DNA from: Methanomicrobiales archaeon | GTDB taxonomy: Archaea; Halobacteriota; Methanomicrobia; Methanomicrobiales; JACTUA01 | Length of the DNA: 61,181 bases | Direction: 5' to 3' | NCBI GenBank assembly: GCA_030019205.1 | Contig: JASEFH010000017.1 | Location: 1 to 61,181, forward strand | Shown here: in pieces, positions 17,825-61,181 of the stretch | Position numbering within the stretch: position 1 is the first letter of the stretch | Layout: each line of letters starts with the position of its first letter | Translations under genes and position numbers: made by a program | Notes under the pieces: generated by a model | What the model saw: only the letters and a program-made list of their open reading frames with translations | Databases searched by the model: none | What the model was told of the DNA's origin: nothing

Positions 17825-19093
17825 ATGGCGTTCCTGGAAGGCATCACCTGCATCTGCGACAACGGAAAGAGGCTCGAAGACCACCGCCCCATCGTGGGGG
17901 ATGCGGTGATGGCGGAGATCTACCGCAAGGCGGAATCCCTCCGCGGCAGGAGCATCATCCACGTCAACTCCACCTACCAGAGCGGCGGGGTGGCGGAGAT
18001 GATCCTCTCCCTCGTTCCCCTCCTGAACGATGCCGGGATCCGCACCGAGTGGAAGATCCTGACCGGCAGCGGGGACTTCTTCACCGTCACCAAGAGCTTC
18101 CACAACGGGCTGCAGGGCGAGGCGATCCCGCTCACGGATGCGGATAAAAGGCTCTACCTCCGCACGAACGAGGAGTTCTCCCGCCTTCTTCCGATCGACT
18201 GCGACTGCGTGGTGGTCCACGATCCCCAGCCCCTGCCCCTGATCCAGTTCTACGAGAAGAGGCAGCCCTGGATCTGGCGCTGCCATGTGGATCTCTCCCA
18301 TCCCCAGATGCACCTCTGGGAATTTCTGCAGGAGTTTGTCATGAAGTACGACCGGATGGTGGTCTCCCACGAGCAGTACCGCCGCGACAACCTGCCGCTC
18401 CCGCAGCGGATCTGCCATCCGGCCATCGATCCTCTCTCCGACAAGAACCGCGACCTGACCGACGAGGAGGTGGCGGCGATCCTCCGGGAGTTCGATGTGC
18501 CGACGGACAAACCCCTGATCACCCAGATCTCGCGGTTCGACAAGTGGAAGGATCCCGAAGGCGTGGTCGAGGTCTTCTGCCGCGTGCGGGAAGAGGTGGA
18601 CTGCCGCCTGGTGCTCTGCGGCAGCATGGCGCCCGACGACCCGGAAGGATGGACGATCTACCGCGGCGTCGAGGAGAAGGCCCGGGACCTGCTGGAGAGC
18701 GGGGACGTCCTCCTGATCACCGTCGAGAACAACCTGCTCGTGAACGCCCTCCAGCGGGCGTCCGCCGTGATCCTCCAGAAGTCCCTGCGGGAGGGGTTCG
18801 GGCTCACGGTCACCGAGGCGCTCTGGAAGGGCAGGGCGGTCGTCAGCTCCCGCGTGGGCGGCATCCGCCTCCAGATCCAGGACGGCGTGAGCGGGTTCCT
18901 GCTGGAGCCGACGGATACGGAGGGGTTTGCGGCGAGGGTCGTGCAGATCCTCCGGGATCCGGCGCTCGCGGAGCGGCTCGGGCGGAACGGGAAGGAGTAC
19001 GTGCGGGAGCACTTCCTCATCACCCGCAAGCTCCTGGACTACCTGGACATGCTGAACGAGGAGCTCGGGCGGACGCAGGAAGCCTGCACCTGA
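17825..19093 (+). CDS. GT4 glycosyltransferase, trehalose synthase (TreT)-like
   Basis: IIHVNSTYQSGGVAEMILSLVP resembles the TreT N-terminal motif and the body is GT-B fold. Start at MAFLEG. Confidence 0.7.
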   Translation: MAFLEGITCICDNGKRLEDHRPIVGDAVMAEIYRKAESLRGRSIIHVNSTYQSGGVAEMILSLVPLLNDAGIRTEWKILTGSGDFFTVTKSFHNGLQGEAIPLTDADKRLYLRTNEEFSRLLPIDCDCVVVHDPQPLPLIQFYEKRQPWIWRCHVDLSHPQMHLWEFLQEFVMKYDRMVVSHEQYRRDNLPLPQRICHPAIDPLSDKNRDLTDEEVAAILREFDVPTDKPLITQISRFDKWKDPEGVVEVFCRVREEVDCRLVLCGSMAPDDPEGWTIYRGVEEKARDLLESGDVLLITVENNLLVNALQRASAVILQKSLREGFGLTVTEALWKGRAVVSSRVGGIRLQIQDGVSGFLLEPTDTEGFAARVVQILRDPALAERLGRNGKEYVREHFLITRKLLDYLDMLNEELGRTQEACT

Positions 19094-45505: not shown

Positions 45506-45715
45506 CGGCGGCCCGGCAGCGCAGCCTCGTGCCCCGGCCTGCGGCGGCGGTCCGGATCCTGCCATCGCTTCCCGTCGGAGCGGGGCGGGAGCGCATCTCT
45601 CCCCCGCGAGGGCGACCCCTCTTCCCCCCGGATCTCGACAATGCTCTGCCGTTCCGTCCCCGTTCGTGAACCGGGCGGCTCCCCCCGCCCGCCGCTCCCC
45701 GCACGGGTGCCGATA

Positions 45716-45792
45716 CACACTTTTTATATATGGCTATCGAGATAGTAACACTGTCATGCTATATCATGGCATAGCGGTATGAGGATGAGTCC
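45716..45792 (+). promoter_or_regulatory. promoter region of the liv substrate-binding-protein gene, with a short inverted repeat
   Basis: cacactttttatatatggctatcgagatagtaacactgtcatgctatatcatggcatagcggtat has a TATA-like ttttatatat and the inverted repeat gctat-N8-atagc. Confidence 0.4.
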
Positions 45793-47106
45793 ATGAAGGC
45801 AAAACTGGCGATTTTGCTCATCTCTTGCATGATGCTCTCCCTCCTGATCGCCGGCTGCACGCAGCAGTCCGCGTCGGCGGAGGAGATCCGGATCGGGGTC
45901 GTGGCGTCCATGACCGGATCGGCGAGCACCACGGGGAAGGATATGTGGCAGTCGGCGGTGGTCGCGGCCGACGCGATCAATGCGGAGGGCGGGGTATTCG
46001 TCCGGGAGCTGAACCGGAAAGTCCCCATCCGCCTGATCCAGGGCGACGACGAGTCCACGCGGGAGGGCGGCATGAAGGCCGTGACCAAACTGATCACCGA
46101 GGACAAAGTCGACCTCCTGGTGGGCGGGTTCTCGAGCGCGGTCACCTCCGCGCACCAGTCGATCGTGGCGGATCACAAGGTCCCCTACATCATCACCGGC
46201 GCCTCGAGCCCGATCATCACCCGCAGGACCGACATCGACACGACCTACATGTTCCACCACTGCCCCACCACGGAGGACTACGGGGAGCAGACCATCCTGT
46301 TCGTCGACGAGGTGATGCGGCCCGCGATCAACCAGAGGTTCAACTTTGCCGACGACCGTCCCCTGCGGCTGGCGATCATCTACCAGGACAGTCCGTACGG
46401 GAAAGGGGTGGACGACGCCGTGAGGAGGACAATCACGGAGAAGAACCTGAACATCCAGATCGTCTCCGAACAGAGCTTCAAGATGGGCGAGAGCGACTTC
46501 CGGACCGTGCTGACCTCGGTAAAGGCGGCAAAACCCGATGTCATCTACCCGGCCGCCTTCATCAACGAGCAGACCGCGCTCGTCACCCAGGCGCGGCGCG
46601 ATGTCGGTCTGGACACGATCTTCCTCGCGGTCGAGTGCAACGATGACCCCGACTACTACAGGGGCGTGGGGAGGCACGGAGAGTACTCGATCATGGAGAG
46701 CCGGTTCAGCCCCTATGTGGTCCCGAAAGGGAACATCACGGACGCCGCCGTCGCGTTCAAGGAGAGTTTCAGGGCGCGGTGGAACGGGTTCCCGGGCATG
46801 ATGGGGGCGTCGACCTACGAGGGGATCTTCATCGCGAAACAGGCGATCGAGACGGCCGGCACGACGAACAAGGAGAAGGTGATGATGGCCCTGAAGGATC
46901 TGGAGATGCCGGAGATCGTGGAGGCGATGGAGGGCAGCACCATCCGCTTCTCGGAGGACTACCGGGAGAGCAAGTTCGCCCTCTACATGGAGCAGCTGAT
47001 CTGGGATCCCGCCCTGAACGAGCTGCGTCCGAAGATCGTCTGGCCCGACAGCCTCAAGGAGGCCGACTTCGTGCTCCCGGAGTGGTACCGCCCCGGGAGC
47101 CCCTGA
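45793..47106 (+). CDS. livK: branched-chain amino-acid ABC transporter substrate-binding lipoprotein (LivK/LivJ family)
   Basis: Lipoprotein signal (LLIAGCT) and a type I periplasmic-binding fold. Confidence 0.88.
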   Translation: MKAKLAILLISCMMLSLLIAGCTQQSASAEEIRIGVVASMTGSASTTGKDMWQSAVVAADAINAEGGVFVRELNRKVPIRLIQGDDESTREGGMKAVTKLITEDKVDLLVGGFSSAVTSAHQSIVADHKVPYIITGASSPIITRRTDIDTTYMFHHCPTTEDYGEQTILFVDEVMRPAINQRFNFADDRPLRLAIIYQDSPYGKGVDDAVRRTITEKNLNIQIVSEQSFKMGESDFRTVLTSVKAAKPDVIYPAAFINEQTALVTQARRDVGLDTIFLAVECNDDPDYYRGVGRHGEYSIMESRFSPYVVPKGNITDAAVAFKESFRARWNGFPGMMGASTYEGIFIAKQAIETAGTTNKEKVMMALKDLEMPEIVEAMEGSTIRFSEDYRESKFALYMEQLIWDPALNELRPKIVWPDSLKEADFVLPEWYRPGSP

Positions 47107-47140
47107 TCTCCCTTTGTAGCGGTTCGGTGGAGCGGCGCCG

Positions 47141-48022
47141 ATGACGAACGAACTCGAGGTCCTGATGCAGGTGCTGTTCTGGGGGGTCTACTCGGGCTGC
47201 ATCTACATCCTCCTGGCGACGGGCCTCAACCTGATCTTCGGGGTGATGAAGACCGTCAACTTCGCCCACGGGGAGTTCCTCATGCTCGGCGCCTACGTCA
47301 CCGCGACCATCTTCGCCCTGACCGGCTTCGATCCCTACAGCATCATCCTCCTCTCGATGGGGGTGCTGGCGCTCGTCGGGATCGCCACGGAGCGGCTCTG
47401 CTTCCGCTGCGTCCTCGGGAAGGGGAAGCTGAACGAGATCTTCCTCTCCCTCGGGCTGATCTACGTGTTCCAGAACGTGGCGGCCCTGATCTGGACGGAC
47501 GAGTGGCAGGGCATCCACAGCCCCTACGAGGCGATCACCATCCCGATAGGGGGTCTGCGGGTGCCGCTCGACTACTTCATCATCGCCGGGGTGACGATCG
47601 CCGTCCTTGCCGCCCTCTACTTCTTCCTGCGGCGGACTCCCACCGGGCGGGCGATGCGGGCGACGAGCCAGAACCGGAGAGGGGCGATGCTCGTCGGGAT
47701 CGACGTGGAGAAGATGGACATGATCAGCTTCGGGATCGGCACCGCCCTGGCGGCCGCGGCGGGAACCCTCTGGGTGGTCAGCGGGCAGGTCTTCAACCCC
47801 TACATGGGCTCGATACCCGCCGTGAAGGCGTTCGCGATCATCATCCTGGGCGGTCTCGGCAGCATCCCCGGGGCGATCATCGGCGGGCTGCTCTACGGGA
47901 TTGCGGAGAACGGGGCCGCCTTCTACCTGGGAGGGCCGTGGAAGGACGCCATCTCCTTCATCGTCCTGATCGTCGTATTGATCGTCCGCCCCACGGGGCT
48001 GTTCGGGGAGTCGGGTGAGTAG
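47141..48022 (+). CDS. livH: branched-chain amino-acid ABC transporter permease
   Basis: LivH-type permease. Confidence 0.88.
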   Translation: MTNELEVLMQVLFWGVYSGCIYILLATGLNLIFGVMKTVNFAHGEFLMLGAYVTATIFALTGFDPYSIILLSMGVLALVGIATERLCFRCVLGKGKLNEIFLSLGLIYVFQNVAALIWTDEWQGIHSPYEAITIPIGGLRVPLDYFIIAGVTIAVLAALYFFLRRTPTGRAMRATSQNRRGAMLVGIDVEKMDMISFGIGTALAAAAGTLWVVSGQVFNPYMGSIPAVKAFAIIILGGLGSIPGAIIGGLLYGIAENGAAFYLGGPWKDAISFIVLIVVLIVRPTGLFGESGE

Positions 48023-49018
48023 ATGCTGGAGAGGCTGCGGGATCCGCGCTGGATGCGGTATGCGCCCCATATCGCCGTGGCCACGGCGATCGCCCTGCCG
48101 TTCCTCTCGGGGATGAACCTCTACCTGATGAATGTCTGGATCCTGATGCTGATCTTCATCATCTTCGCCTCGTCCTGGAACCTCCTCGCCTACTCGGGGC
48201 AGGCGTCGCTCGGGCACGCCGCTTTCTTCGGCATCGGGGGCTACGTCTCGACGCTCGTCGCCCTCAACCTGGGGGTGAGCCCCTATCTCTCCATTCTCGT
48301 CGGCGGCGCGGTCTCGGCGATCGTCGGGGTGCTCCTCGGTCTCACCTGCGTGCGGCTGAAGGAGTGGTTCCTCGCCATGGTCACGTTCGGGTTCGCCATC
48401 ATCGTCCAGACGCTGGTCGTCAGCGTGCTCGCCCCCGTCAGCGGCGGCTGGGACGGGCTCTCGTCGCCCCGTCTGCTGGCGAGCAGCGTCCCCGGCTCCG
48501 CCCTCTTCGAGTACTACGCGATCCTCCTGGTCACCATCGGGTCGATCCTGCTGATCCACTTCATCTTCCGGTCCCGCCTGGGGCTCGCCTTTGCTGCGAT
48601 TCGCGAGAACGAGCTCGAGGCGCGGGTCTCCGGCGTGGATCCGGTGCGCTACAAACTGCTGGCGTTCGCCATCAGCGCCTTCCTGGCGGGCATCGCCGGC
48701 GCTCTCGAGATCCACCACTTCGGCTACGTCACCCCGGAGATCTACGGTGTGGATCTCTCGTTCTGGCCGGTGATCTACACCATCTTCGGGGGGCTCGGCA
48801 CCATTGCCGGACCCATCCTGGGAACGGTGGTCATCACGGTCCTCTGGGACGCCCTGAAGGACCTGGGGCTGACCTACGAGCGCTACATCGTCATCGGCGC
48901 CGTCCTGGTCTTCTCCGTGATATTCCTGCCCAAAGGGCTGGTCTCCCTGCCCGAGGCGATCTCCGCGTGGCGGCGGCGGAGACGGGGGCGGGTCCGCGGC
49001 GATCAGATGCCCAGGTAA
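48023..49018 (+). CDS. livM: branched-chain amino-acid ABC transporter permease
   Basis: LivM-type permease, adjacent to livH (TAG/ATG junction). Confidence 0.88.
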   Translation: MLERLRDPRWMRYAPHIAVATAIALPFLSGMNLYLMNVWILMLIFIIFASSWNLLAYSGQASLGHAAFFGIGGYVSTLVALNLGVSPYLSILVGGAVSAIVGVLLGLTCVRLKEWFLAMVTFGFAIIVQTLVVSVLAPVSGGWDGLSSPRLLASSVPGSALFEYYAILLVTIGSILLIHFIFRSRLGLAFAAIRENELEARVSGVDPVRYKLLAFAISAFLAGIAGALEIHHFGYVTPEIYGVDLSFWPVIYTIFGGLGTIAGPILGTVVITVLWDALKDLGLTYERYIVIGAVLVFSVIFLPKGLVSLPEAISAWRRRRRGRVRGDQMPR

Positions 49019-49698
49019 GCCCGCTGCACGTGCTCGTCGTGGAAGAGCTCCTTTGCCTTCCCCTCCAGGACGATCCTGCCGTTCTCCATCACGTAGCCGC
49101 GGTGGCAGAGGTCGAGCGCGTTCCGCACGTTCTGCTCGAGCAGCAGGATGGTCATGCCCTTCCGCCCCAGGCGCTCCAGCGAGCGGAAGACCTCCCCGAC
49201 GAGCCGGGGGGAGAGCCCCGTCGACGGTTCGTCCAGGACGAGCAGTCTGGGATTCGACATGAGCGCACGGGCGATCGCGAGCATCTGCTGCTCCCCGCCG
49301 CTCAGGGTGCCGGCCAGCTGACTCTCCCGCTCGCGCAGAACGGGAAAGAGCGCGTGGATGCTCTCGAGATCCCCGTCCCGCCCCCGACGGTCGATCGCCC
49401 CCAGGCGCAGGTTCTCGAGAACGGTCATCTTCGGGAATATCTCCCGTTTTTCGGGGACCAGGGCGAGCCCTTTCCGGAAGATGGCATGGGGGGGTTGTCC
49501 GAGGATCTCCTCGCCCAGGAACGTGACGCTCCCGGAGGCCTGCGGGTTCAGCCCGAAGATGGTCTCGACAAGGGTGGTCTTCCCGGCGCCGTTCGGCCCG
49601 AGGAGGGCCACGATCTCCCCCTCGTCGATGTGCAGGGCGAGATCCCAGAGGATCTGGAGACTGCCCCGGAACACGTTCAGACGGTCGAGCTCCAGCAC
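49003..49698 (-). CDS. livF: branched-chain amino-acid ABC transporter ATP-binding protein
   Basis: Walker A (GPNGAGKTT), signature (LSGGEQQ) and Walker B (LLVLDEP). Confidence 0.9.
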   Translation of the reverse strand: MLELDRLNVFRGSLQILWDLALHIDEGEIVALLGPNGAGKTTLVETIFGLNPQASGSVTFLGEEILGQPPHAIFRKGLALVPEKREIFPKMTVLENLRLGAIDRRGRDGDLESIHALFPVLRERESQLAGTLSGGEQQMLAIARALMSNPRLLVLDEPSTGLSPRLVGEVFRSLERLGRKGMTILLLEQNVRNALDLCHRGYVMENGRIVLEGKAKELFHDEHVQRAYLGI

Positions 49699-49708
49699 GC
49701 GAGACCCC

Positions 49709-50446
49709 CTACATGGCGTCCAGTTCGCCGAGGTAGGTCTCGATCACGCGCCGGTTGTTGATCACGTCGTGCGGCCGCCCTTCGGCGATCTTCTCCCCGT
49801 GGTCCAGGACCACGATCCTGTCGGAGACGCCCATGATCACCTGCATGACGTGCTCGATGATCAGGATCGAGGTCCCTGCGTCCCGGATCTCCCGGATGAG
49901 CTGGACCGCGTCCGCGCTCTCTCTGGGCGTCAGCCCGGTGGTCAGCTCGTCCAGGAGGAGGAGCCGGGGCTTCGAGGCCAGGGCGCGGGCGAGCTGCACC
50001 CTCTTCAGCTCCACGACGTTGAGGTGGCGGATCAGCGTCTCGTGCTTCTCGGGCGGCAGTCCGATCCGCTCGAGCAGTTCCTCCGCCTCCCGCCGCGCCT
50101 CCCCCATGCCGGGCGCCCTCGAGTTCCCGAAGAGGGAGCCGAGCATCACGCACTGCTTCGCGGAGAGCTCGGGAAAGAGGTGGACGAGCTGGAACGTCTT
50201 GGTGATGCCCTTCCGGCAGATCTGCTCGGGTTTCCAGCCGGTGAGGTCTTCGCCCTGGAAGATGACGGTCCCCGAGGTCGGCTGCGCGATCCCGGAGATG
50301 ATGTTGAGCAGCGTGGTCTTGCCCGCCCCGTTGGGGCCGACCAGCCCCAGGATCTCGTTCTCGTGCACCTCGAGACTGACGCCGTTCAGGGCGACGAGGC
50401 CGTTGATCTTCTTGGTGATCCCTTCCGCCCGCAGCAAGATCGACAC
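49709..50446 (-). CDS. livG: branched-chain amino-acid ABC transporter ATP-binding protein
   Basis: GPNGAGKTT, LLLDE and a LivG-type C-terminus. GTG start. Confidence 0.9.
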   Translation of the reverse strand: MSILLRAEGITKKINGLVALNGVSLEVHENEILGLVGPNGAGKTTLLNIISGIAQPTSGTVIFQGEDLTGWKPEQICRKGITKTFQLVHLFPELSAKQCVMLGSLFGNSRAPGMGEARREAEELLERIGLPPEKHETLIRHLNVVELKRVQLARALASKPRLLLLDELTTGLTPRESADAVQLIREIRDAGTSILIIEHVMQVIMGVSDRIVVLDHGEKIAEGRPHDVINNRRVIETYLGELDAM

Positions 50447-50457
50447 CGTGCCAGACT

Positions 50458-50469
50458 GTAGCTAGCTAC
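50458..50469. promoter_or_regulatory. 12-bp perfect palindrome GTAGCTAGCTAC in the livGF promoter / 5' region
   Basis: The palindrome sits 11 nt upstream of the livG GTG, and about 25-40 nt downstream of a TATA-like ccTTAATAAcc on the minus strand. Confidence 0.4.
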
Positions 50470-50826
50470 TAATTGACAGTGATGGTTATTAAGGTAACCC
50501 GATTCGGATCCGGGAGGTTTCCGGCGGAATCCCGGGCGGGTCCGCCCCGACCTGCCGCAGCCGTACTCGCGATGAAGGCAGAGTGCCAGGAACCGCTCCC
50601 TGCCGCCGCACCGAAGACGTGCTGACGCCCTCTCGATGTGCGAGGGCAGCCTGCGGCGATCCGTGCCGACGGTTGCACCTCCCTGCAGTACGCGAACCCG
50701 AACGTGCGGGACGGCGGAAGCTGCCTCGAGGGCGGCGGGGCAGGGTGGGGAAAGGGGTCCTCCATCACCCTCTGCTGTCCTCTCGAGCAACCCTGACGCC
50801 CGGGATGGTCCGCGGCAGCGGCGGGA

Positions 50827-51273
50827 CTATGCCGGCGGACTCCCGCCGGGGTTCCGGGCCATCGGGCAGACGTTGCAGCCCTCCATCTCCCCGAAGCAGA
50901 AGAGGAACCGTTCGCGGATGCTCCGCGGTAGGCGGGCCTCGGGGATGGGGTAGAACCCGAAGGTCTTATAGAACGGGATGAGGGGCAGGGTCGAGTGGAT
51001 GTAGATCGTCTCGGCGCCGCAGGTGTCGATGAGGAGTTCGACCGCCTCGCGGGCGTAGCCCTTCCCCCGGTACGCGTCCAGCGTGAAGACGCAGTCCATC
51101 TCCAGGCCGTCGGGGTGGCGGGTGCAGCGGGCGGTGGCGGCGAGGGTGCCGTCTAGGAAGACGCCGAAGATCCTCTCGCGGGCGGGATCGGCCTTCTGGT
51201 TGCGGTACTGCTCCCAGATCTTCTCGGCGAGGGGGAACTCTTCCGGCGTCAGGATGCGGGTCTCGGGTTTCAT
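50827..51273 (-). CDS. GNAT-family N-acetyltransferase
   Basis: …IYIHSTLPLIPFYKTFGF… with an acetyl-CoA pocket (RGKGYAREAVE). Start at MKPETRIL. Confidence 0.78.
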   Translation of the reverse strand: MKPETRILTPEEFPLAEKIWEQYRNQKADPARERIFGVFLDGTLAATARCTRHPDGLEMDCVFTLDAYRGKGYAREAVELLIDTCGAETIYIHSTLPLIPFYKTFGFYPIPEARLPRSIRERFLFCFGEMEGCNVCPMARNPGGSPPA

Positions 51274-51492
51274 CGGTCTCTCCGGTGACGATGGGCGGAT
51301 ACGCTCTCCTCCCTGATATATGCTTGCGGTCTGCGGGGGCAGGGGGCGTCCGCGCCCCGCGGTGCATGCGGAGATTCGGGGGATCCCCCGGGATTCGGTG
51401 CGGACCCCGAGCCTCCCCAGGGGTTCTTCCGCAAAGCCCTTCAGGCAGCAGTTAGTATTATGATCCCGGAGCGCCAAAGGTACTGGTCAGGT

Positions 51493-51563
51493 GCGATAGT
51501 AGTCTAGTGGCAGGACAGGGGCTTCCCAAGCCTCTAGCCCGGGTTCGAATCCCGGCTATCGCA
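51493..51563 (+). tRNA. tRNA-Gly (anticodon CCC)
   Basis: Hand-folded cloverleaf. Acceptor GCGATAG/CTATCGC; D stem GTCT/GGAC; anticodon stem GGGGC/GCCTC with loop TTCCCAA; T arm CCGGG-TTCGAAT-CCCGG; discriminator A. No CCA is encoded. Confidence 0.85.
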
Positions 51564-51899
51564 TCCCTCTTCTCGGTCACCGTTTATGCACACCCGTTCC
51601 GGGTCACCCCTGACCCGCGACTGCCGGGAGATATTTTCTCCACGAGGTCCGGCCGGTGACTGCCGAGCCCGATAGGCTTTGCGCCCGGGAGAACGCGGCC
51701 AAAATCCCGACGGACGCTGCGCATTTCCGCGAATGCATCGCCGAACGTCGGGCGGACCGGCACGATCGTCTCCTGCCCGGTCACCGGGCGGGGCTTCACC
51801 GCTCTCTTCCCGGAGATGCTGGAAGCGGATCTCTGCGGGGTATCGCACGCGCATAGAGTCCTGAGGTCGGCCGTTCACGCAGAACCCCCCGGCGGGGGG

Positions 51900-52350
51900 A
51901 AGGGGTCCTCGAGCAGTGCTGCCGCTGGCTGAACGAGAACGGCTACCCCAGCATCCCGGAGAGTAGACGACCGGGGTGGCCGCCATCTCTCCCGGGGAGA
52001 TCCGCCCCATGGTCCATTCCTCTCGCCGCCTGGTGGACGGGACAGGGATCCCGCCCCCTCTGCGAGGGGGGGATCCGCATCGGCGAGTTCGGGACCCTGA
52101 AGCGGGGCGATCCCGCCTTCGGCGCTGCATCCGCCCGATCATGGCCCGCGAGTGCCTCGCCACGCCCGAGGGTGATGCCCTGCTCTCTGTCACCGTCAGG
52201 GGGAGCCCTTCACCCCCGCCACCATCCCGCGGCTGCAGGTCATCGCGGAGGAGGCGGGTATCACAGGGCATATCGTCCCCGCATCTTACCGGCCTGGTGT
52301 TCCAGACCTATGCCCGCCTGACCGGCGCCGATATCGATGCCGCGATGTGA
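51900..52350 (+). pseudogene. decayed tyrosine recombinase/integrase remnant downstream of tRNA-Gly
   Basis: Integrase-like peptide fragments are scattered over three frames (…GEIRPMVHSSRRLVDGTGI…, …IRIGEFGTLKRGDPAFG…, …LSVTVRGEPFTPATIPRLQVIAEEAGITGHIVP…) with stops and shifts between them. Confidence 0.35.
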
Positions 52351-52737
52351 CAGCCCCACGGCATTGCCGGGACGGTGGAAAAAGCCTCCTCCCGCCGGGA
52401 ACCGATCCTCGGCCCCCTGCAAGACGATCAACTCCCCGCTCTCCAACTACCGATCGAGCTGCGGCTGTTCCTTGACGGCCGGTGTCATCCCGACTCAGGA
52501 GGGGATGCAGAAGGATATCCTCGGTAACCCCGGGGTGCCGCGGGCCCTGTTGACCGGGCTGATCGAGGAGAAGCGGAAGAATGGCAGCCTGCGAGTGTCG
52601 GAGCGACTGTCCCTGATTGTGTATGATTCGTGCACAATTTGGTGATGATCTGTAACCATCCCAGATTACAATCTTATCCGAAGAGCAGGTTTCAATGGAC
52701 CTGGAATGGATCAGCGGAGAAAAGAGGGTATCATGAG

Positions 52738-53142
52738 TTACCCTTGAGACGACTCCTCCATGGAGGTTCTTTTTACTTTGGTGGATAGAGCCTTCTCTTC
52801 ACCCTCGTGTGGCGCATATGTTTCTATCTGACCACCACGATGCACGGCCTCGAGGGTTCTGAGGGTGACCTCTGCCAGTTTTTTAGCTGCTGCATGGGAC
52901 ATGAATATTCGTGTTGCATTGACCAGGACTTTGCCATCTCTCTTGACACCCGGCATTTCAAGAAAATCAATAAACACGTCGCGTGTTGAACAGGTTATAT
53001 AGGCAGTGTTGGAGTAGCGGGTGATGGTAACGTCCGGTACCATGTCTGCCGGGTCGAAGGCATACATCGCCTTTAGATCGATCTCCATAGGTTCGTTATC
53101 CAATGTTCCGGGTTCCTGTTTGTTTGCTTTACTTTTCGCCAT
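52738..53142 (-). CDS. DUF3467-domain protein
   Basis: YSNTAYITCSTRDVFIDFLEMPG…ATRIFMSHAAAKKLAEVL matches the DUF3467 core. The alternative start at 53172 would overlap the upstream gene. Confidence 0.6.
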   Translation of the reverse strand: MAKSKANKQEPGTLDNEPMEIDLKAMYAFDPADMVPDVTITRYSNTAYITCSTRDVFIDFLEMPGVKRDGKVLVNATRIFMSHAAAKKLAEVTLRTLEAVHRGGQIETYAPHEGEEKALSTKVKRTSMEESSQG

Positions 53143-53143
53143 A

Positions 53144-53650
53144 TCATGTACCTGCCGAGCGTGCGATTCCATACTCTCCTTTGATCAAATAGCTCGGTTC
53201 AGAGGTCGAGAGCTGGGAGTTCACGAGTTTGTATTCTCCCACGGTTGCAACAGCGTGGGATGCGACCTCGCTCCCGAGAACCGTCTTGCAATAGTGTTTG
53301 ATTGCCGTATCCATGCACTCCGATCCTTCTCGATCATCCAGGATGGCAAAGGACAGGAACGTGAGTGCCACGAAGCGTTTGCACTCTGTGTTGACGCTGT
53401 ACACGGGATGCTTGTCACCATGCTTGATGAGCAGCCCCAAGTCCGTGAGTGTTTTCAGTGCGTCCCGGATTGTGGGCGCTGTACATCCTGTCAGTTCCAC
53501 TAGATCCTTGGGGCGGTAGAGCGAATGCGGGTCCGCAACAATCTCCTGGACAACCTGAGCGAGTGCCGCATCCCCAAATATGCCCCCAAACGGTGAATCG
53601 ATAAATGTATCATCGACTTCACGTCGGGGATTCACGCCATTCTCTATCAT
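53144..53650 (-). CDS. winged helix-turn-helix transcriptional regulator
   Basis: DLVELTGCTAPTIRDALKTLTDLGLLIKHGDK is a wHTH. It is co-oriented with, and abuts, the DUF3467 gene. Confidence 0.5.
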   Translation of the reverse strand: MIENGVNPRREVDDTFIDSPFGGIFGDAALAQVVQEIVADPHSLYRPKDLVELTGCTAPTIRDALKTLTDLGLLIKHGDKHPVYSVNTECKRFVALTFLSFAILDDREGSECMDTAIKHYCKTVLGSEVASHAVATVGEYKLVNSQLSTSEPSYLIKGEYGIARSAGT

Positions 53651-54105
53651 AGATCGTGATGGTAGATGGTGCAGAATAGATAATAATTTTTCCGTTATGG
53701 AAAAAACATTATTCAAATTTCTGCCAGTGCCGGTGGTGGGGGATCTCCTCTCCGTAGTACTGCATCCACTGGTCCGCCCATACCAGATCGTGGAGTTTCA
53801 CCACCTTATCCCCCGTTGAGCCGTGTCAGTAGATGCCGATGCGGTCCTGCCCGAGGTCATTGATGGTCGTCTCCACTTCAAGGCCCAGATCCTGCCACTT
53901 CCTCTCGCACTTCGTGAGACGCTGCTGTCCTCCTCTCTTTTTCAACCAGGCCAGGAAACGAACTCCGATTGAACCCGGATCCGGATGCGGCGGGTGAGGT
54001 GGGGCGGCCGGCATGTATCCTCAGTCCGTTGTCAATTTTCTGAATGCATAAAGGATAGGCAAGCGCTGTAAATATACTGACAAATAAGTCCCTTTTTACT
54101 AAAAA

Positions 54106-54318
54106 TTAAATGTGAAGTCTGCTTAAGACGCCAAGAACTCCCAGGATTCCCAGGGCAAATCCGATGGCCACACCGCCGACGAGTGCCAGTGTCCCGACAA
54201 TCTCGTTGACCTGGGTGATACAGAGGATGATGCCCGTGGCGATCAATACCCCGACGATACCGCTCCCGCCTAAGCCCATCCCAAAAATCCTTTGAGCCAA
54301 TGCATCACCTCCATTCAT
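54106..54318 (-). CDS. small hydrophobic membrane protein (70 aa)
   Basis: Two predicted TM helices. Its start overlaps the stop of the upstream nuclease-like gene by 1 nt. Confidence 0.4.
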   Translation of the reverse strand: MNGGDALAQRIFGMGLGGSGIVGVLIATGIILCITQVNEIVGTLALVGGVAIGFALGILGVLGVLSRLHI

Positions 54319-54608
54319 CAGAGAGATTTTCTCCTGCTGATCAGCCGTACGTTAGGCCGGAATCTGTCGCGGTACTCGATGGCAGGTCGTGTGAACCCGG
54401 CCTTGCTGTCCACTTCTGACACGCCTTTGTCTCGGATCAGTCTCTGGAGCTCAGGACGGGTGACTTTGGAAGATCGGCATTTGACTTCCCCCTTCACCGA
54501 GCCTCTCTGGTAGTCGTGATTCCCCGGGCCGCCTACATGCCTTGCCCCGTGCTCCTTGGCCTTCCGTTTCTCGTAGTCGAGGCCACGTTTTACATGATTC
54601 CCTGGCAT
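54318..54608 (-). CDS. small PD-(D/E)xK nuclease-fold protein, Hjc (archaeal Holliday-junction resolvase)-like
   Basis: KRGLDYEKRKAKEHGARHVGGPGNHDYQRGSVKGEVKCRS parallels Hjc motifs (KG.ERE…G…R…G…vD…iEVK). Confidence 0.45.
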   Translation of the reverse strand: MPGNHVKRGLDYEKRKAKEHGARHVGGPGNHDYQRGSVKGEVKCRSSKVTRPELQRLIRDKGVSEVDSKAGFTRPAIEYRDRFRPNVRLISRRKSL

Positions 54609-54693
54609 TTGTTTTCACTGTTATATTATTTTCAATAATAAAATTTTGAAATTTTTATTTTAGCATTCATAGCATCCTTACTATGGTTAACAT
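54609..54693. promoter_or_regulatory. AT-rich divergent promoter region
   Basis: ttgttttcactgttatattattttcaataataaaattttgaaatttttattttagc lies between the divergent 54318..54608 and 54694..55494 genes. Confidence 0.45.
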
Positions 54694-55494
54694 ATGCAGG
54701 GCATCGAAAAGACGGTTCACATCATCCCCCTCGGATACGAGATCGATCGGGCCGTAAAACCGTTCGAGAAGACGAAGGCCGACCGTGTATACCTATTGAC
54801 GACGTTGCATCCATCGAACCCGGACGATGTCCGGAGTAAGGATCAGCGGCACTACACGGAGACTGTGAAAAGGATTCTGGAAGATATGGAGATTCAGGTA
54901 CAGTGCGTCCATGTGGATCTCTTCGATCTGCTCGACGTGATGAAAGAGATCTCGAAGATCATCCTTCGGGAGAAGGCCAACAACAATCGAATTTTTGTGA
55001 ACATGTCTGCTAGCGGAAGGCTCACTTCTGTCGCTTCCACCCTTGTTGGAATGGCCCACGATGTCACGGTGTATTATGTCCCTGCCGAGGATTACCCTGT
55101 CGACGAGGTCCTCCGCAGAGATCACGGCTTGAGAATCTGCTCTCCAGATGATGATATCCAGAAGCTGGTGAACTTCCAGTTCGTCATGCCGGATCCCATC
55201 GGCAGACAGATCCTCCTGCACCTGTGCAGCGAGAGAAGGCGGTTGAAGATGAGAGATATTCTGAGTGTCCTGAAGAAAGAGAAGGTTGAGGGGTTCGAGG
55301 AGCTGTTCGATGAGATCCGGGATGGCAACAAAAGAGCGGAGCAGAGTCGCCAGCTCATGAAGCTGGACAGGACCATCCTGGCGAAGCTCGAAAAGAACGG
55401 GTGGATCGCGCGGGAAAAGGTCGGACGGACCGTCTTCATATCCATAACGGAATCCGGGAAATACGCCGCATGTATCAGCGGTTATTTGGACTAG
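54694..55494 (+). CDS. HFX_2341-like archaeal transcriptional regulator (Rossmann-like N-domain plus C-terminal wHTH)
   Basis: VHIIPLGYEIDRAVKPFEK…RVYLLT is a Rossmann-like sensor domain. The C-terminus reads ILSVLKKEKVEGFEELFDEI…TILAKLEKNGWIAREKVGRTVFISITESG (wHTH). Confidence 0.5.
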   Translation: MQGIEKTVHIIPLGYEIDRAVKPFEKTKADRVYLLTTLHPSNPDDVRSKDQRHYTETVKRILEDMEIQVQCVHVDLFDLLDVMKEISKIILREKANNNRIFVNMSASGRLTSVASTLVGMAHDVTVYYVPAEDYPVDEVLRRDHGLRICSPDDDIQKLVNFQFVMPDPIGRQILLHLCSERRRLKMRDILSVLKKEKVEGFEELFDEIRDGNKRAEQSRQLMKLDRTILAKLEKNGWIAREKVGRTVFISITESGKYAACISGYLD

Positions 55495-56399
55495 GGTACA
55501 ATCATGCAGTATTCGGTATCGTGATTGTATTTGAGTGCTGTATTCTCGGCCAATACATTGTCAAATGTGTCTCTACACAATTGAGAAAGGAATATTATTG
55601 ACTGAATGTAAAATCTAAGCCAAATTCTCAGCTTTTCAGTTCTACAAATACAGTTTCGTCTCATTCACTCCTCCACTCTAATAGAATGATCCAACGAAAT
55701 TTCTCCGTGTGGTCATGGGCATCGCGACTGAAAACCCCCCAATATCGCACACCGGGCGCTGAAACGGCAGTCATTCCAGCTTTTCACTCACCGCACGACA
55801 GCATCACCAGCACTATCACCTTTCCATCCCTATGGTGCCTGTCCCATACCCCGAATCCCCCGCAGCGTTCCGCCGCTCCCTGCACCACGCAATCAAAGTG
55901 ATTAACATGGGGAAGTAAAAATTTTCAAGTGAACAAATGGAGGCATAACAATGCTTGAAAAGAGATGTTCCTTCAACAGGGGCATCGTTCGCAAAATGAT
56001 AGTCTTTGGACTGAGTACTTTGGTCGAGCGGAGGGAATGGACGTGCGCAACGGAATAAGCGGCAACTCTCACACTAACTTGCCCCTAATACGTGATAGGA
56101 CTGCCAAAGTGCATTAACTACGCGATGAAAAATTCTGACGGACCAAGAATGGCAGCCCCTCTCTTATTGGATAGATATTGTTCCATGTGGAACAATTTTG
56201 TTATCCAGTTGCATCGGATATTGGACGTATTCGAGTGGAATAGGTGCGACACTGTCGCAACTATTGTTTGCCAGTCTGCTATGCCCTCCAGCATCCATGA
56301 CTCTGACATTCTATCGCCATTAGCCTAAATCGCAACATTATTCTTTTCCGATTTTCGATACTTGCATACAGTAACTATTGCATTTATCAGGAGAAGGCG

Positions 56400-58016
56400 A
56401 TGGCACGGGGGAGCAGGACCGCAAGGAACCAGAGCAAAAGATCCGGAAACGGGGCCAATCTCGGGTTTGAGGCAACGCTCTGGGCCGCTGCTGACAAGAT
56501 GCGCAACAACATGGATGCGGCCGAGTACAAGCACGTGGTCCTCGGCCTCATCTTCCTGAAGTACATCTCCGATGCGTTCGACGAGCGCCACACCCGGCTC
56601 GAGACGGAGCTGGGCGATCCGAAGAGCCTCTGGTACATCCGCGAGCCCCAGGCCCGCTACCGCGCCCTCGAGGATCCGGACGAGTACCGGGCGGAGAACG
56701 TCTTCTGGGTCCCGAAGGAGGCCCGCTGGTCCTACCTGCAGGCGAATGCGAAGCAGCCCACCATTGGAAAGATCCTTGACGAGGCGATGGTCGCGATCGA
56801 GCGGGACAATGTATCGCTCAAGGGTGTGCTCCCGAAGGACTACGCCCGCCCCGCCTTGGACAAACAGCGCCTCGGCGAGCTGATCGATCTCATCGGGACC
56901 ATCGGTCTCGGAGACAAGGAGAACCGTTCAAAGGACATCCTCGGGAGAGTGTACGAGTACTTCCTCTCCCAGTTCGCGAGTGCCGAGGGGAAGAAGGGCG
57001 GCCAGTTCTACACGCCCCGCTGCGTGGTGCGGGTGCTGGTGGAGATGCTCGCGCCGTACAGGGGGCGGGTCTTCGACCCCTGCTGCGGCTCGGGGGGCAT
57101 GTTCGTCCAGAGCGAGAAGTTCGTCGAGGCCCACGGCGGACGGATCGGGGATATCAGCATCTACGGGCAGGAGTCCAACCCGACGACCTGGCGGCTGGCA
57201 AAGATGAACCTGGCCATCCGGGGCATCGACGCCGATCTCGGGAAGGAGCACGCGGACAGCTTCCACCGCGATCTCCACCCGGACCTAAAGGCCGACTACA
57301 TCCTCGCCAACCCGCCGTTCAACATGAGCGACTGGGGTGGTGAGCGGCTCCGGGAAGATGCCCGCTGGAAGTACGGAGTCCCGCCGGTGGGCAACGCCAA
57401 CTTCGCCTGGGTGCAGCACTTTATCCACCACCTGGCCCCGACCGGTCTTGCCGGGTTCGTGCTCGCGAACGGTTCGATGTCCTCGAACCAGTCCGGCGAG
57501 GGGGAGATCCGCCAGAACATCATCGAGGCGGACCTGGTGGACTGCATGGTGGCGATGCCAGGGCAGCTCTTCTACTCGACGCAGATCCCCGTCTGTCTCT
57601 GGTTCCTGGCCCGCGACAAGAAGAACCACCGCTTCCGCGATCGACGGGGGAAGATCCTCTTCATCGATGCCCGCAAGCTGGGCCATATGATCGACCGGGT
57701 GCATCGGGACCTCTCCGAGGAGGATATCGCCCGCATCGCCGGGACCTACCATGCCTGGCGGGGCGATGCCGGGGCGGCGACGTACGAAGACGTGCCGGGT
57801 TTCTGCAAGAGCGCGACCATCGAGGAGGTGCGGCAGAACGGGTATGTGCTCACGCCGGGGAGGTATGTGGGTGCGGAAGTAGTGGAGGACGATGGCGAGC
57901 CGTTCGATGAGAAGATGCAGCGGCTCACTGCGAAATTGAAGGAGCAGTTCGCAGAGTCCGAGCGGCTGGAAGCGGTGATCCGGGAGAACCTGAAGGGGCT
58001 CGGGTTTGAGATTTAA
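56400..58016 (+). CDS. hsdM: type I restriction-modification system DNA methyltransferase subunit
   Basis: HsdM N-terminus ([34 protein letters not shown]), AdoMet motif ([12 protein letters not shown]) and catalytic NPPF ([12 protein letters not shown]). Confidence 0.9.
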
Positions 58017-58035
58017 GAATAAGGGAGCACATTCT

Positions 58036-59757
58036 ATGAGTATTCCCACAAATAGTGAAATAATCGCCCTTTTAAACCAGCTTGAAAATACATCTGCCGA
58101 TAATCTTGAAACCCAGAACCTCGATTTCAAACCCTGGACCGATGCGAAAAATGACTTGAGAATCGCGGTTGAATACGCTGTTTGTTTTGCCAATACGACC
58201 GGTGGAGTTGTCGTCTTTGGTGTGTCCGATAGGATAACAGGACGCTCTCGTGCGATTCACGGTGCACAGGGCTATGATATCGATGTATGGCGCAGAGGGA
58301 TCTTTGATAGTACTCGGCCACATATTCTTGCAGATGTGGAGGAACTTGCCGTTCCCGAGGGCACCGGACATCTTTTAGTGGTACGCGTGCCAAAAGGGGA
58401 TTCCCCACCCTATGGCACGGCTCTGGGAATTTTCAAGCGGAGGGTTGGTAAGAACTGTATGCCGATGGACCCTGCGGAATTCGTATCCTACCGTGTCTCA
58501 ACGGGTGCTGTTGACTGGAGCGGTCAGCCAGCTCACAATGTCTCAATAGATGATCTCGATCCCCTTGAGGTTGCAAGAGCACGTTCCTTCCTGCGAAGTC
58601 GCAATCCCGAGTCCGAGCTTCTTAAAATGCCTGATTATGCATTTCTGCAGGGTCTTGAAGCGATTCGCGACGATGCCGTTACAAATACGGGTTTAATCCT
58701 TTTTGGCAACCCGGACATTATAGAAACCCATTGTCCACAGAACCAGGTGCATTACGTCCACCAGGTCTCCGAAACCAATGTCGCGAGAAATGATCTGTGG
58801 AGGATGAGTCTCCTCCAGATCATTGAGAAACTGGAGGGGATATTTTCGAGTCCAGCCAATCCGGAGGAAGAGATTCCCATGGGCCTTTTCAGGCTTCGGA
58901 TCCCGGCGTATCCCCTCGAGGTAGTGAGAGAAGCAGTACTGAATGCGGTGACGCACCGGGATTATACCAACCCGGGTGAAGTGCTCATCCGGCATTCACC
59001 ATATGAACTTGCAGTAACGAGTCCGGGTGGATTCATCGGCGGAATTAACCTCCAGAATATTCTTCGTCATGAGGCTGTGGCTCGGAACCGGACACTGGCG
59101 AACGCTTTTCTCAAACTCAGACTGGTCGAATCTGCTGGCACTGGACGCCGGAAGATCTTCATTCCCATGCTCGAATACGGGAAGAGAATGCCCCAATATG
59201 AAGCAGATGAGTCCTGTGTTACGCTCCGGATATTCGATGGAACGTTTGATCAAGCAATGGCACGGCTCGTAGCCAGCTGGCATGCGAAAGGGAAGGATAT
59301 CGGGATGGATGGTCTCATGGTCCTCACCTACCTGAAGCGTCATCGTTTTATCACATCTTCCGATGCGGCGGCGTTGCTCCAGCTGGATCGTGAGGAGGCC
59401 ATCAGTGTGCTGGATCGCATGAGCCATCCCAAGAGGGGCCTTCTTGAGCGGAAAGGTCACGTTCGCATGGCGACGTATTACCTCACCAAGTCCGTGGCCA
59501 AGGATTTGATCGGGAAGGTTGCGTATTCCTCTACAAAAGGGATCGATCCCACCCGATACATGGAACTGGTCCGGGAATTTGTGCAAGATCACGGGAGCAT
59601 AACGAATAGAGAGTGCCGCCAGTTATTCGGGCTTGGCGATTCCCCTTCAGCTCAGGTGGAAGTATCCCGATATTTGAGAAAGTGGTCTGGTCCGGACGGG
59701 TTCCTCATCCCCGAGGGCAGGTCCTCCCAAAGAAAATACCGATTACGGAGTTCTTAA
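58036..59757 (+). CDS. AlbA_2 (Schlafen-like 'divergent AAA') plus HATPase_c_4 domain protein (often annotated RecG-like/transcriptional regulator)
   Basis: The N-terminus (…NLDFKPWTDAKNDLRIAVEYAVCFANTTGGVVVFGVSD…) is the Schlafen/AlbA_2 core. A central ATPase-like domain and a C-terminal wHTH-like region follow. It starts 20 bp after the hsdM stop. Confidence 0.7.
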   Translation: MSIPTNSEIIALLNQLENTSADNLETQNLDFKPWTDAKNDLRIAVEYAVCFANTTGGVVVFGVSDRITGRSRAIHGAQGYDIDVWRRGIFDSTRPHILADVEELAVPEGTGHLLVVRVPKGDSPPYGTALGIFKRRVGKNCMPMDPAEFVSYRVSTGAVDWSGQPAHNVSIDDLDPLEVARARSFLRSRNPESELLKMPDYAFLQGLEAIRDDAVTNTGLILFGNPDIIETHCPQNQVHYVHQVSETNVARNDLWRMSLLQIIEKLEGIFSSPANPEEEIPMGLFRLRIPAYPLEVVREAVLNAVTHRDYTNPGEVLIRHSPYELAVTSPGGFIGGINLQNILRHEAVARNRTLANAFLKLRLVESAGTGRRKIFIPMLEYGKRMPQYEADESCVTLRIFDGTFDQAMARLVASWHAKGKDIGMDGLMVLTYLKRHRFITSSDAAALLQLDREEAISVLDRMSHPKRGLLERKGHVRMATYYLTKSVAKDLIGKVAYSSTKGIDPTRYMELVREFVQDHGSITNRECRQLFGLGDSPSAQVEVSRYLRKWSGPDGFLIPEGRSSQRKYRLRSS

Positions 59758-59770
59758 CAGGGGTCTTAAC

Positions 59771-60022
59771 ATGATGGTTGTTCGAATGATTAAATCATTT
59801 TTAATCGGCTTTAATTTGCATAAATGCGCGAAATTGAGCTTATTTGATATCTTAACAGATCTTTTCATCACGGTACATCGCAGTCACCAATACTATGGAG
59901 AATACGTAAGCTATTATGGCTTCTTCAAGCGAGCTATTGACCCTTCCTGTATCTGCTCACACGGATACGTACAAAATTGTCGCGACGCTGTCATGACTAT
60001 TGGCAAGGTGATGATTCGATGA
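59771..60022 (+). CDS. small hypothetical protein (83 aa) in a low-GC cassette
   Basis: ORF in an approximately 40% GC segment. Its TGA overlaps the next ATG (ATGA), which suggests coupling. Confidence 0.35.
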   Translation: MMVVRMIKSFLIGFNLHKCAKLSLFDILTDLFITVHRSHQYYGEYVSYYGFFKRAIDPSCICSHGYVQNCRDAVMTIGKVMIR

Positions 60023-60678
60023 ACTATCCATCAAAAAAAGAACTATTCGCTCAAGGGATGAAGTCTTCGCAAGCGTCTAATTTCCTGATCTTTGCCAGCT
60101 ACAGCACAAAGGATATTGAAAAGGATTTAGAATATAGTGCTGGAGATTATGCTCACGCAGGTTTCAAGGCTGGACTATCACTTGCCCCTGTACTAGGAGG
60201 ATCATTGGCAGAATTTTTCTCCATGGTTATTGCTCCGCCAATAGAGAAAAGACGCGAAGCCTGGTTGGTGGAAATTCACTCGCGATTAAAATTACTGGAA
60301 AATAAGGTTGAAGGCTTCAAAATTGAAAATCTCGCCCAAAATGAACAATTTATCAGTATACTCCTCTATGCAACTCAAGCAGCAATGAGAACACACCAAC
60401 AGGAAAAACTCGACGCTTTTCGCAACATGGTTGTTAATTCAGCATTAAGGCCAACAATTGATGAAAATTTACAATTGGTTTTCCTGAATCTTGTTGATAG
60501 ATATACTCCTTGGCATTTGGTTATCCTCAAATTTGCAGATAATCCTAGACAATATGGGGAAAGTCTAGGAATCAATTATCCAAATTGGGGCATGGGTAGC
60601 TTAGGAGGTCATCCCAAAACCCTCCAGATCATTAGGGCACAGGCCAGGTATATGAGCCCCAGGAATGAGTGTTCATAG
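60019..60678 (+). CDS. hypothetical protein (low-GC), with its 3' end running into IS sequence (probably truncated)
   Basis: ORF from MNYPSKKELF. The last roughly 25 codons are encoded by the antisense of the IS transposase C-terminus, so the native C-terminus is probably lost. Confidence 0.4.
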   Translation: MNYPSKKELFAQGMKSSQASNFLIFASYSTKDIEKDLEYSAGDYAHAGFKAGLSLAPVLGGSLAEFFSMVIAPPIEKRREAWLVEIHSRLKLLENKVEGFKIENLAQNEQFISILLYATQAAMRTHQQEKLDAFRNMVVNSALRPTIDENLQLVFLNLVDRYTPWHLVILKFADNPRQYGESLGINYPNWGMGSLGGHPKTLQIIRAQARYMSPRNECS

Positions 60679-61181
60679 CGTTCGTATCTGGGGACTAGCT
60701 TCTTAAAGGCCTCGATCCAACTGAAGAACCGTTCAACCGCACCCCGTTTCTTGTAGAGATTCTTATCAAACCGAACCGGTCTTCCCCGCTTGGGATATTT
60801 CCGGTTTCTGGGATTGATCGGGATATTGCTTTTTATGCCTCGTTTCCGAGTGTACTGTCGGATCTCCTGGGAATCATAGGCGGCATCGGCGGAGATGACG
60901 GCCGGTTTCTCCGTGGTTCCGGGAATCGTGAATGCTGCAACCGTTGGTTCAAACAGGCGAGAATCATGGATGTTCGCCGGGGCGACCCTGCAGGCCAGCG
61001 GGAGACCCTGCTCATCGACCAGAACGCTCAGTTTGTTTCCTTTCACCTTTTTGTAACCGTCAAAGCCGATGTTTCCCCTTTTTTGGCGGGAATCGATTTG
61101 GTATCGGTGATGCAATGGACCAGGTCGAGTCGCTGGATGTCATAGCCGGACTGCAGCAGGTCGAGGAAGATCGCCTGATAC
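60590..61181 (-). mobile_element. IS5-family insertion sequence (partial; continues beyond the window) with frameshifted DDE transposase
   Basis: Transposase C-terminal part (…GNIGFDGYKKVKGNKLSVLVDEQGLPLACRVAPANIHDSRL…ISADAAYDS…) in ORF 60609..61115. The upstream part (…YQAIFLDLLQSGYDIQRLDLVHCITDTKSIPAKKG) is in the 0 frame, joined at an A6G run (61084-61096). Confidence 0.75.

Follow-up and report, generated by a model that had tools for sequence, protein, structure and literature searches.

A probable insertion hotspot with several acquired modules beside tRNA-Gly(CCC) in an uncultured Methanomicrobiales archaeon

The window analyzed here spans one whole contig (61,181 bp) of a Methanomicrobiales metagenome-assembled genome (MAG; proteins MDI6877022 onward), and our subject is the foreign DNA that begins beside its tRNA-Gly(CCC) gene and runs to the contig end. 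We consider it likely that the 3′ flank of this tRNA gene is an insertion hotspot that received several modules independently and not the site of one decayed element. A sequence-only reading had proposed a provirus-like element or integrative and conjugative element (ICE) that inserted at the tRNA and then decayed. Most gene assignments of that reading hold, and an integrase-associated foreign segment does lie beside the tRNA and has decayed. The single provirus/ICE-like element, however, does not hold: Pfam and PHROGs revealed no virion or conjugation genes, the restriction-modification (R-M) genes lie outside a 15-bp repeat found in a relative, and hsdM differs from its neighbors in GC content at third codon positions (GC3, 0.87). 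Stepwise accretion at a tRNA-adjacent hotspot describes the mechanism better.

Two arrangements of the locus carry the argument. In the first, contig L001 (FWPV01016810.1) is 98.5% identical to window 50969–60122. In the second, L032 (GCA_034679905.1, JAXDAH010000173.1) shares 87–91% nucleotide identity with window 45690–55903, has the same Liv–GNAT–tRNA-Gly order with an identical tRNA sequence, and continues into an intact integrase gene. The window and L032 have a core in common, which comprises the integrase, a DUF3467 protein, a 168-aa protein, a short open reading frame (ORF), a 70-aa membrane protein, a 96-aa protein and CARF3. To the right of this core, L032 carries hcp, HxlR and ferredoxin (Fer4) genes in place of the R-M genes.

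Composition and content of the region

The region is sharply set off in composition. GC content is 0.667 over positions 1–51491 and 0.536 over 51567–61181, and tetranucleotide usage departs as well, its correlation with the remainder of the contig declining from 0.90 or more to 0.25–0.30 in 54–56 kb and 58–60 kb, confirming the shift that the earlier reading had put forward for checking. GC3 is 0.90–0.95 in the Liv transporter and GNAT genes but 0.36–0.71 in the island genes, hsdM excepted. By gene, it is 0.51 for DUF3467, 0.59 for the 168-aa protein, 0.65 for the 96-aa protein and 0.71 for CARF3; right of the core, the near-host value of hsdM stands beside 0.53 for the AlbA_2 gene and 0.36 for the 219-aa ORF. 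The drop had been placed directly 3′ of tRNA-Gly, and here the position needs correction: the first 1.1 kb after the tRNA, which holds the integrase pseudogene, has a GC content of 0.68, and GC falls at ~52.65 kb.

The description of the region as a mosaic with accessory, defense-like genes is well founded. It consists of several modules, and its genes include CARF3, a type I methyltransferase and an AlbA_2 protein, with a TIR gene in the sister contig L001. Rfam and tandem-repeat searches of 51–61 kb returned tRNA-Gly alone, which ARAGORN places at 51492–51566.

A decayed integrase beside the tRNA

A recombinase gene next to the tRNA is expected of a tRNA-targeting tyrosine-integrase element, and here it is present as a pseudogene in the window and as an intact ortholog in L032 (409 aa, PF00589; phrog_1 integrase at 1e-28). 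The remnant in three frames described earlier is genuine, with the intact L032 protein matching window 51608–52591 by tblastn. Whole-frame translations gave no Pfam match, and the remnant can be demonstrated only against the intact ortholog. Compared with L032, the start codon has changed from ATG to CGG and the stop codon from TGA to CGA, and 13 deletions totaling ~235 nt (23, 1, 10, 2, 34, 6, 46, 24, 1, 3, 80, 3 and 2 nt) have accumulated within the ORF, the 80-nt deletion having removed the box II (H-x-x-R) segment ...HIFRHSRVTHL.... Independent samples yielded contigs (L001, L002 and L004) with the same pseudogene at 98.5–99.96% identity, and it is therefore not an assembly error. Nucleotide identity to the L032 gene is 81%, and that of the flanks is 87–91%. 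Substitutions comprise 130 AT-to-GC and 64 GC-to-AT changes, an excess that accounts for the host-like GC content of the dead gene.

Two further features of this gene were observed. The C terminus of the L032 integrase carries a CxxC...CxxC zinc-ribbon extension, and a C-terminal stretch of 58 aa is still 79% identical in the window. The pseudogene also contains a short GC-rich inverted repeat (GGATCCCGCCCCCTC / GAGGGGGGGATCC; window 52040–52075) where the ancestral reading frame is disturbed.

Boundaries of the integrase-associated core

Homology between the window and L032 fades at ~55905, apart from a patch of ~80 nt at 56070–56150. Two copies of a perfect 15-bp direct repeat, GTTACCCCTAACCCG, lie in L032 at 6667–6681 and 11365–11379; the repeat's score of 15 exceeds the highest value among 300 shuffles, 13.5. 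Its left copy forms codons 2–6 of the integrase gene and its right copy lies at the edge of the shared sequence; decayed counterparts of both are found in the window (Table 1). The ~80-nt patch itself (L032 11357–11432) is ~76% conserved between diverged stretches of DNA and holds the right copy. On the evidence of this one relative, we take the 15-bp repeat, by inference, as the strongest candidate for the attachment (att) core of a ~4.5-kb element spanning 51603–56092, a site that lies 39 nt downstream of tRNA-Gly in the window and 67 nt downstream in L032. If this core recombines, the empty site would read as the tRNA flank followed by ATG + GTTACCCCTAACCCG + TGGTAGGACTGCC, and the circular junction would be ...CACACAAA + GTTACCCCTAACCCG + CAACTGATAACGG.

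Several observations weigh against these boundaries, or against treating the core as a mobile unit of its own. First, the repeat is imperfect in the window, at 13/15 and 11/15. Second, L032 contains another 15-nt repeat, CCCGGCTATCGCATC (the terminal 13 nt of the tRNA and 2 nt more), at 18455–18469, which sets up a competing boundary of 11.9 kb. Third, neither an empty site nor an excised circular form was found, and the case for mobility of the core is built on the integrase and a single 15-bp repeat known from one relative. Fourth, the intact L032 integrase (6664–7893) has a host-like GC3 of 0.88 and the six adjoining genes have 0.51–0.67, such that the integrase may differ in history from the low-GC core genes. 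Finally, the comparison covers two lineages, and the right flank of the window lineage lies beyond the contig end.

The empty site was sought from both flanks. On the right, homologs of the L032 PAS gene in Methanoculleus proved to be paralogs in unrelated contexts. On the left, Methanoculleus GNAT homologs (76–79% identity) lie in a polysaccharide-synthesis context without Liv genes alongside, and synteny at the genus level is therefore absent. A metagenome scan for the predicted junction CCCGGCTATCGCATCCCTTG gave three chance matches, all in unrelated contigs that lack a tRNA. The small ORFs at the right edge, p63 in the window and p67 in L032, are not homologous.

The repeat of the tRNA end bears on the explanation that had been favored at the outset, in which a single large provirus-like or ICE-like element integrated into the 3′ end of tRNA-Gly, brought the whole cargo of 51.6–61+ kb and then decayed, its right attachment site (attR) lying beyond the contig. 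We regard this as unlikely. The downstream copy of the tRNA end in L032, which speaks for a single large element, is exact, is preceded by AT-rich DNA and has a score of 15.5, where shuffled sequence reached at most 13; if it marks an outer boundary, the tRNA in an empty site would be joined directly to CCCTTGCACGG. However, genes at 11.6–17.8 kb of L032 have GC3 values of 0.71–0.80 and the PAS gene beyond the candidate attR has 0.76, no more host-like than those inside, and composition therefore gives this boundary no support. Moreover, the window itself contains no repeat of the tRNA end (at most 3 mismatches in 23 nt, and by local alignment, over the 9.6 kb to the contig end), nothing resembling the tRNA end right of the CARF3 gene rises above chance, and the cargo right of the core is wholly different between the two lineages. 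L032 also carries 28 extra nucleotides directly after the tRNA (6600–6627), among them an incomplete second copy of the tRNA 3′ end (TTCGAATC..GCATCC). This copy may have been left by earlier recombination at tRNA-Gly and is the second point on the side of a single large element.

Gene content argues further against one large element. No capsid, portal, terminase or other virion genes were detected with Pfam or PHROGs, the core lacks recognizable replication and conjugation genes by the same searches, and neither the integrase nor the CARF3 protein had a close relative in IMG/VR scans. Phage-type matches were limited to the integrase, to phrogs of unknown function and, for the AlbA_2 protein, to a phrog labeled ‘DNA helicase’. 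Likewise, no VirB4/VirD4-type ATPase, relaxase or mating-pair gene occurs among the ORFs of window 51.5–61.2 kb or L032 6.6–18.5 kb. An exact-protein look-up in a gene-position index gave no record for the hsdM or CARF3 proteins.

At the other extreme, there may have been no integrative element at all, only a flexible tRNA-adjacent region that turns over by homologous or illegitimate recombination and a resident Xer-like recombinase that one lineage has lost. The host-like GC3 of the L032 integrase fits such a history, as does its best NCBIfam match, archaeal XerA, although this match falls far under the cutoff (102 bits versus 220); the replacement of a TIR gene body described below likewise shows that cassettes can be exchanged here by recombination without an integrase. 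Nevertheless, the integrase directly adjoins both the tRNA and the sharp composition break, its zinc-ribbon extension is to our knowledge not typical of XerA, and the perfect 15-bp repeat brackets exactly the block common to both lineages. We therefore judge the absence of any integrative element to be distinctly unlikely, and retain the hotspot with separately acquired modules as the favored account.

A type I restriction-modification operon right of the core

The methyltransferase encoded right of the core matches HsdM over its full length, with intact motifs including NPPF, and Pfam confirms the Schlafen-like AlbA_2/HATPase_c_4 gene that had been noted after it. The hsdM gene had been called an orphan, a status that the sister contig does not bear out. 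In L001, the AlbA_2 gene is followed by a gene for a 225-aa TIR_2 protein and then by one for the N-terminal 201 aa of HsdS (NCBIfam type I S subunit, E 2e-14), which places hsdS after two genes downstream of hsdM. From the order hsdM, AlbA_2, TIR, hsdS, we take hsdM to be the first gene of a type I operon that has other genes nested inside it. No HsdS is encoded within the window, and both the window contig and L001 stop before any possible position of hsdR. We treat the operon as a separate acquisition because it is absent from L032 and lies outside the 15-bp repeat.

Similar operons with nested accessory or defense genes occur elsewhere, in which hsdM is followed by AlbA_2/HATPase_c_4, TIR or 239-aa-family genes and then by hsdS. 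Homologs of the AlbA_2 protein (56–73% identity) are present in Methanospirillum, Methanocalculus and many bacteria, and those in the bacterial loci L011 and L013 sit among hsdM, hsdS and hsdR. The same nested layout recurs in L011, L013 and L044–L047, which also carry Fic and Mrr_cat genes. By contrast, the window copy is broken by a cassette swap and an insertion sequence (IS), its hsdS is seen only in the sister contig and hsdR is not seen. A scan of GTDB representatives, which do not include the source species, with the AlbA_2 protein gave a best match of 73% identity in Methanospirillum and recovered no right flank.

Two side observations concern these accessory genes. In the bacterial loci L014 (5352–9242), L020 (4484–8152) and L024 (11896–15606), the AlbA_2/HATPase_c_4 homolog is followed by an ORF of 1,220–1,300 aa without a Pfam match at E 1e-5, which may be a recurrent, uncharacterized partner of this protein. 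Thoeris was considered for the TIR gene and rejected: the match of the L001 TIR protein to ThsB profiles is weak (E 3e-7), its neighborhood contains no ThsA gene, and in the window other sequence stands in place of the TIR domain.

A chimeric gene and an insertion sequence

What had been read as a two-gene cassette of ~40% GC is one chimeric gene, which NCBI annotates as a single 219-aa protein and which is also present in the sister MAG. Its residues 1–35 share 86% identity with the N terminus of the L001 TIR protein, and residues 31–203 are 72% identical to residues 5–174 of a 233-aa protein. We found 88 members of this 233–240-aa family, mostly in Methanoregula-like genomes and without a Pfam domain; the window copy (60109–60606) is truncated, its last ~60 codons having been removed by the IS. 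One member, P0339, occupies the corresponding slot of a type I operon with the order hsdM, Fic, p239, hsdS, Mrr_cat, a gene for a 262-aa protein and hsdR (L044–L047; family member at L044 6001–6720). The chimera and the presence of the family in the same slot of other R-M operons together indicate that a gene of another R-M operon took the place of the TIR body, the two sequences meeting at a ‘KDI’ stretch common to both.

The IS belongs to the IS5 family, as had been recognized from the letters, and its transposase has the DDE_Tnp_1 domain of that family; it is ‘partial’ solely because the contig ends inside it. Unlike IS5-family elements seen in full, only ~575 nt are visible here, and the ends and any target duplication lie beyond view. 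The transposase appears to be encoded on the minus strand in two frames that meet at CCAAAAAAGGGG, which contains an A_AAA_AAG heptamer (window 61060–61090). Programmed −1 frameshifting at this heptamer is possible and would fit better than a broken gene, in which case the transposase gene need not be broken. No second copy of the IS was found in the window or the fetched loci.

A mosaic of this kind invites the explanation that it was produced by MAG assembly or binning. The contig does end within an IS copy at position 61181, and the sister MAG breaks at that same point and also inside the CARF3 gene. Against this, 49716–60122 is covered colinearly at 98.5–100% identity by contigs from independent samples and assemblers (FWPV01016810 from NCBI, two Logan runs, a JGI metagenome and two ENA assemblies), and the junction at 60122 is common to two MAGs. 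The lineage is present in the samples behind GCA_900174595 (FWPV01), SRR23186779 and SRR31012009. We find an assembly or binning artifact scarcely credible.

Proposed order of events

Taken together, these arrangements suggest a sequence of four steps, of which we infer the order. First, a small cryptic integrative element (module 1, ~51603–56092) would have been inserted by its integrase through site-specific recombination at the 15-bp core; in the window lineage the integrase gene would then have become a pseudogene, fixing the element, after which both repeat copies could drift and the dead gene would have drifted to host GC content. Second, the type I R-M operon (module 2, 56400 onwards), with hsdM, AlbA_2/HATPase_c_4, TIR and hsdS, would have been acquired separately to the right of module 1. 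Third, recombination at the short ‘KDI’ stretch would have swapped the TIR body for the 233–240-aa-family gene (module 3). Finally, the IS5-family element (module 4) would have entered the 3′ end of the swapped-in gene, where the assembly breaks.

Table 1. Features of the tRNA-Gly(CCC) flank, in window coordinates
Feature	Position	Strand	Evidence or remark
tRNA-Gly(CCC), intact	51493–51563	+	Rfam RF00005, 66.8 bits, E 4e-13
Tyrosine integrase pseudogene	51600–52594	+	tblastn with intact 409-aa L032 integrase, three frames, E 1e-35; MAFFT alignment
Left repeat copy, decayed, GTCACCCCTGACCCG, 13/15	51603–51617	+	Matches integrase codons 2–6
DUF3467 protein	52738–53172	−	PF11950, E 4e-9; conserved in L032; NCBI annotates 134-aa form
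168-aa protein, probably winged-helix DNA binder	53144–53650	−	Weak PADLOC matches
62-aa ORF	53826–54014	−	Annotated in L001–L004
70-aa small membrane protein, two hydrophobic helices	54106–54318	−	Sequence; conserved in L032
96-aa minimal PD-(D/E)xK protein, Mrr-like restriction-endonuclease fold	54318–54608	−	
CARF3 / HFX_2341-like regulator, CARF-like Rossmann domain and C-terminal winged helix	54694–55494	+	Pfam, PADLOC
Right repeat copy, decayed, CTTGCCCCTAATACG, 11/15	56078–56092	+	Window/L032 homology stops ~55 nt beyond (~56150)
hsdM, type I R-M methyltransferase	56400–58016	+	HsdM_N (E 7e-28) and N6_Mtase (E 7e-112); PADLOC MTase_I 1e-237
AlbA_2 (Schlafen-like) and HATPase_c_4 protein, 573 aa	58036–59757	+	SLFN_AlbA_2 E 8e-16, HATPase_c_4 E 1e-12; phrog_12156 3.5e-45
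Chimeric 219-aa ORF (MDI6877034)	60019–60678	+	Divergence from L001 at 60122; BLASTP
IS5-family insertion sequence	60607–61181 (left edge ±10 nt)	−	DDE_Tnp_1 PF01609, E 7e-22, 78.6 bits (cutoff 23)

Other genes of the core

The CARF3 gene, transcribed divergently from the nuclease operon, encodes the HFX_2341-like regulator proposed earlier. Both of its domains exceed the Pfam thresholds, HFX_2341_N (PF19810) at E 2e-38 and 131.8 bits (cutoff 30) and DUF6293_C (PF22665) at E 8e-22 and 78.1 bits (cutoff 27), and PADLOC assigns CARF3--CARF at 1e-102, placing it in the CARF3 / HFX_2341 family. In Haloferax mediterranei, HFX_2341 is a Csa3a-like global repressor able to repress cas genes (PMC11434293). 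The two proteins share the pairing of HFX_2341_N with a DUF6293_C winged helix, and both genes are remote from CRISPR-cas loci. The haloarchaeal gene, however, is reported to be chromosomal and vertically inherited (PMC11434293), whereas the CARF3 gene of the window lies in low-GC foreign DNA and diverges from an operon for a mini-nuclease and a membrane protein.

The 96-aa protein of that operon has the features of a PD-(D/E)xK enzyme, with an alpha-beta-beta-beta-alpha-beta core and conserved E ... D ... E-x-K residues. D32, E41 and K43 do not vary across its family, in which E13 and a GGPG turn are conserved as well; the family comprises 47 representative clusters of unannotated, ~90–130-aa members without a Pfam model. 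It had been described as an Hjc-like nuclease paired with a membrane protein, and both the nuclease fold (PD-(D/E)xK, Mrr-like) and the two-helix membrane protein stand, but the Hjc identity does not. Hjc Holliday-junction resolvase was rejected, as neither the sequence nor the closest structure match led to Hjc. In L048, a 52%-identical family member (5001–5309) directly follows a Bub-type E1/E2/BubE (E1/E2/JAB-like) operon, a region that HEPN_RiboL-PSP and HTH_3-Peptidase_M78 genes adjoin. This neighborhood suggests that the 96-aa family is a defense-island effector; no linkage of the family to CARF3 was seen in three other genomic contexts examined.

The remaining core genes are less distinctive. 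In the proposed pair of a winged helix-turn-helix (wHTH) gene and a DUF3467 gene, the DUF3467 assignment is sound (Table 1), and the wHTH half is suggested by weak PADLOC matches of the 168-aa protein to the wHTH parts of Csa3, SoFic and PDC-M05A (E 0.002–0.006). This protein has no Pfam match and is annotated at that length in five assemblies. The 62-aa ORF has no family match in PADLOC or PHROGs.

Far from the region, at window 10600–10900, GC content dips to ~0.57. This segment is intergenic, between an ORF for an HtrA-like protease and one for a PAS histidine kinase, and is not another island.

Discussion

Cryptic archaeal elements with tyrosine integrases beside tRNA genes are known, among them the pNOB8-type elements with non-partitioning integrases. 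Module 1 resembles these in having a recombinase beside a tRNA, a compositional break, short direct repeats at its ends and decay after fixation. In contrast to pNOB8-type elements, however, its candidate att core lies outside the tRNA and overlaps codons 2–6 of the integrase gene, and the window element is only ~4.5 kb in length, with no recognizable replication, virus or conjugation genes. In SSV-type elements, which have partitioning integrases, the att site lies within the int gene and integration splits it into int(N) and int(C). The candidate recombination core of module 1 likewise falls within integrase coding sequence, but the integrated gene of L032 is unsplit, an ATG immediately upstream of the core preserves the 409-aa ORF, and the core is not part of the tRNA gene.

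This geometry allows a more ambitious reading, which we think improbable, in which the ~4.5-kb core would be a minimal self-integrating element with its recombination core within the opening codons of the integrase gene it carries, and with an uncharacterized defense or addiction module as payload. The layout would resemble that of SSV-type elements, except that the integrase gene stays whole when integrated. As part of the same improbable reading, the payload would be a CARF3–wHTH sensor-regulator that controls the divergent operon for the Mrr-like mini-nuclease and the small membrane protein.

Every component of the region belongs to a known kind, and the locus adds little that is new beyond documenting a probable integration hotspot next to tRNA-Gly(CCC) in a high-GC lineage of uncultured Methanomicrobiales; current understanding stands. 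It does offer a comparative record of stepwise assembly, in which an integrase element would have been fixed and decayed, an R-M operon placed next to it, a gene exchanged upstream of hsdS and the product hit by an IS. Three features may be of use to specialists: the family of 96-aa Mrr-like mini-nucleases, the 233–240-aa family that recurs between hsdM and hsdS, and a candidate att core that overlaps the first codons of an integrase gene.

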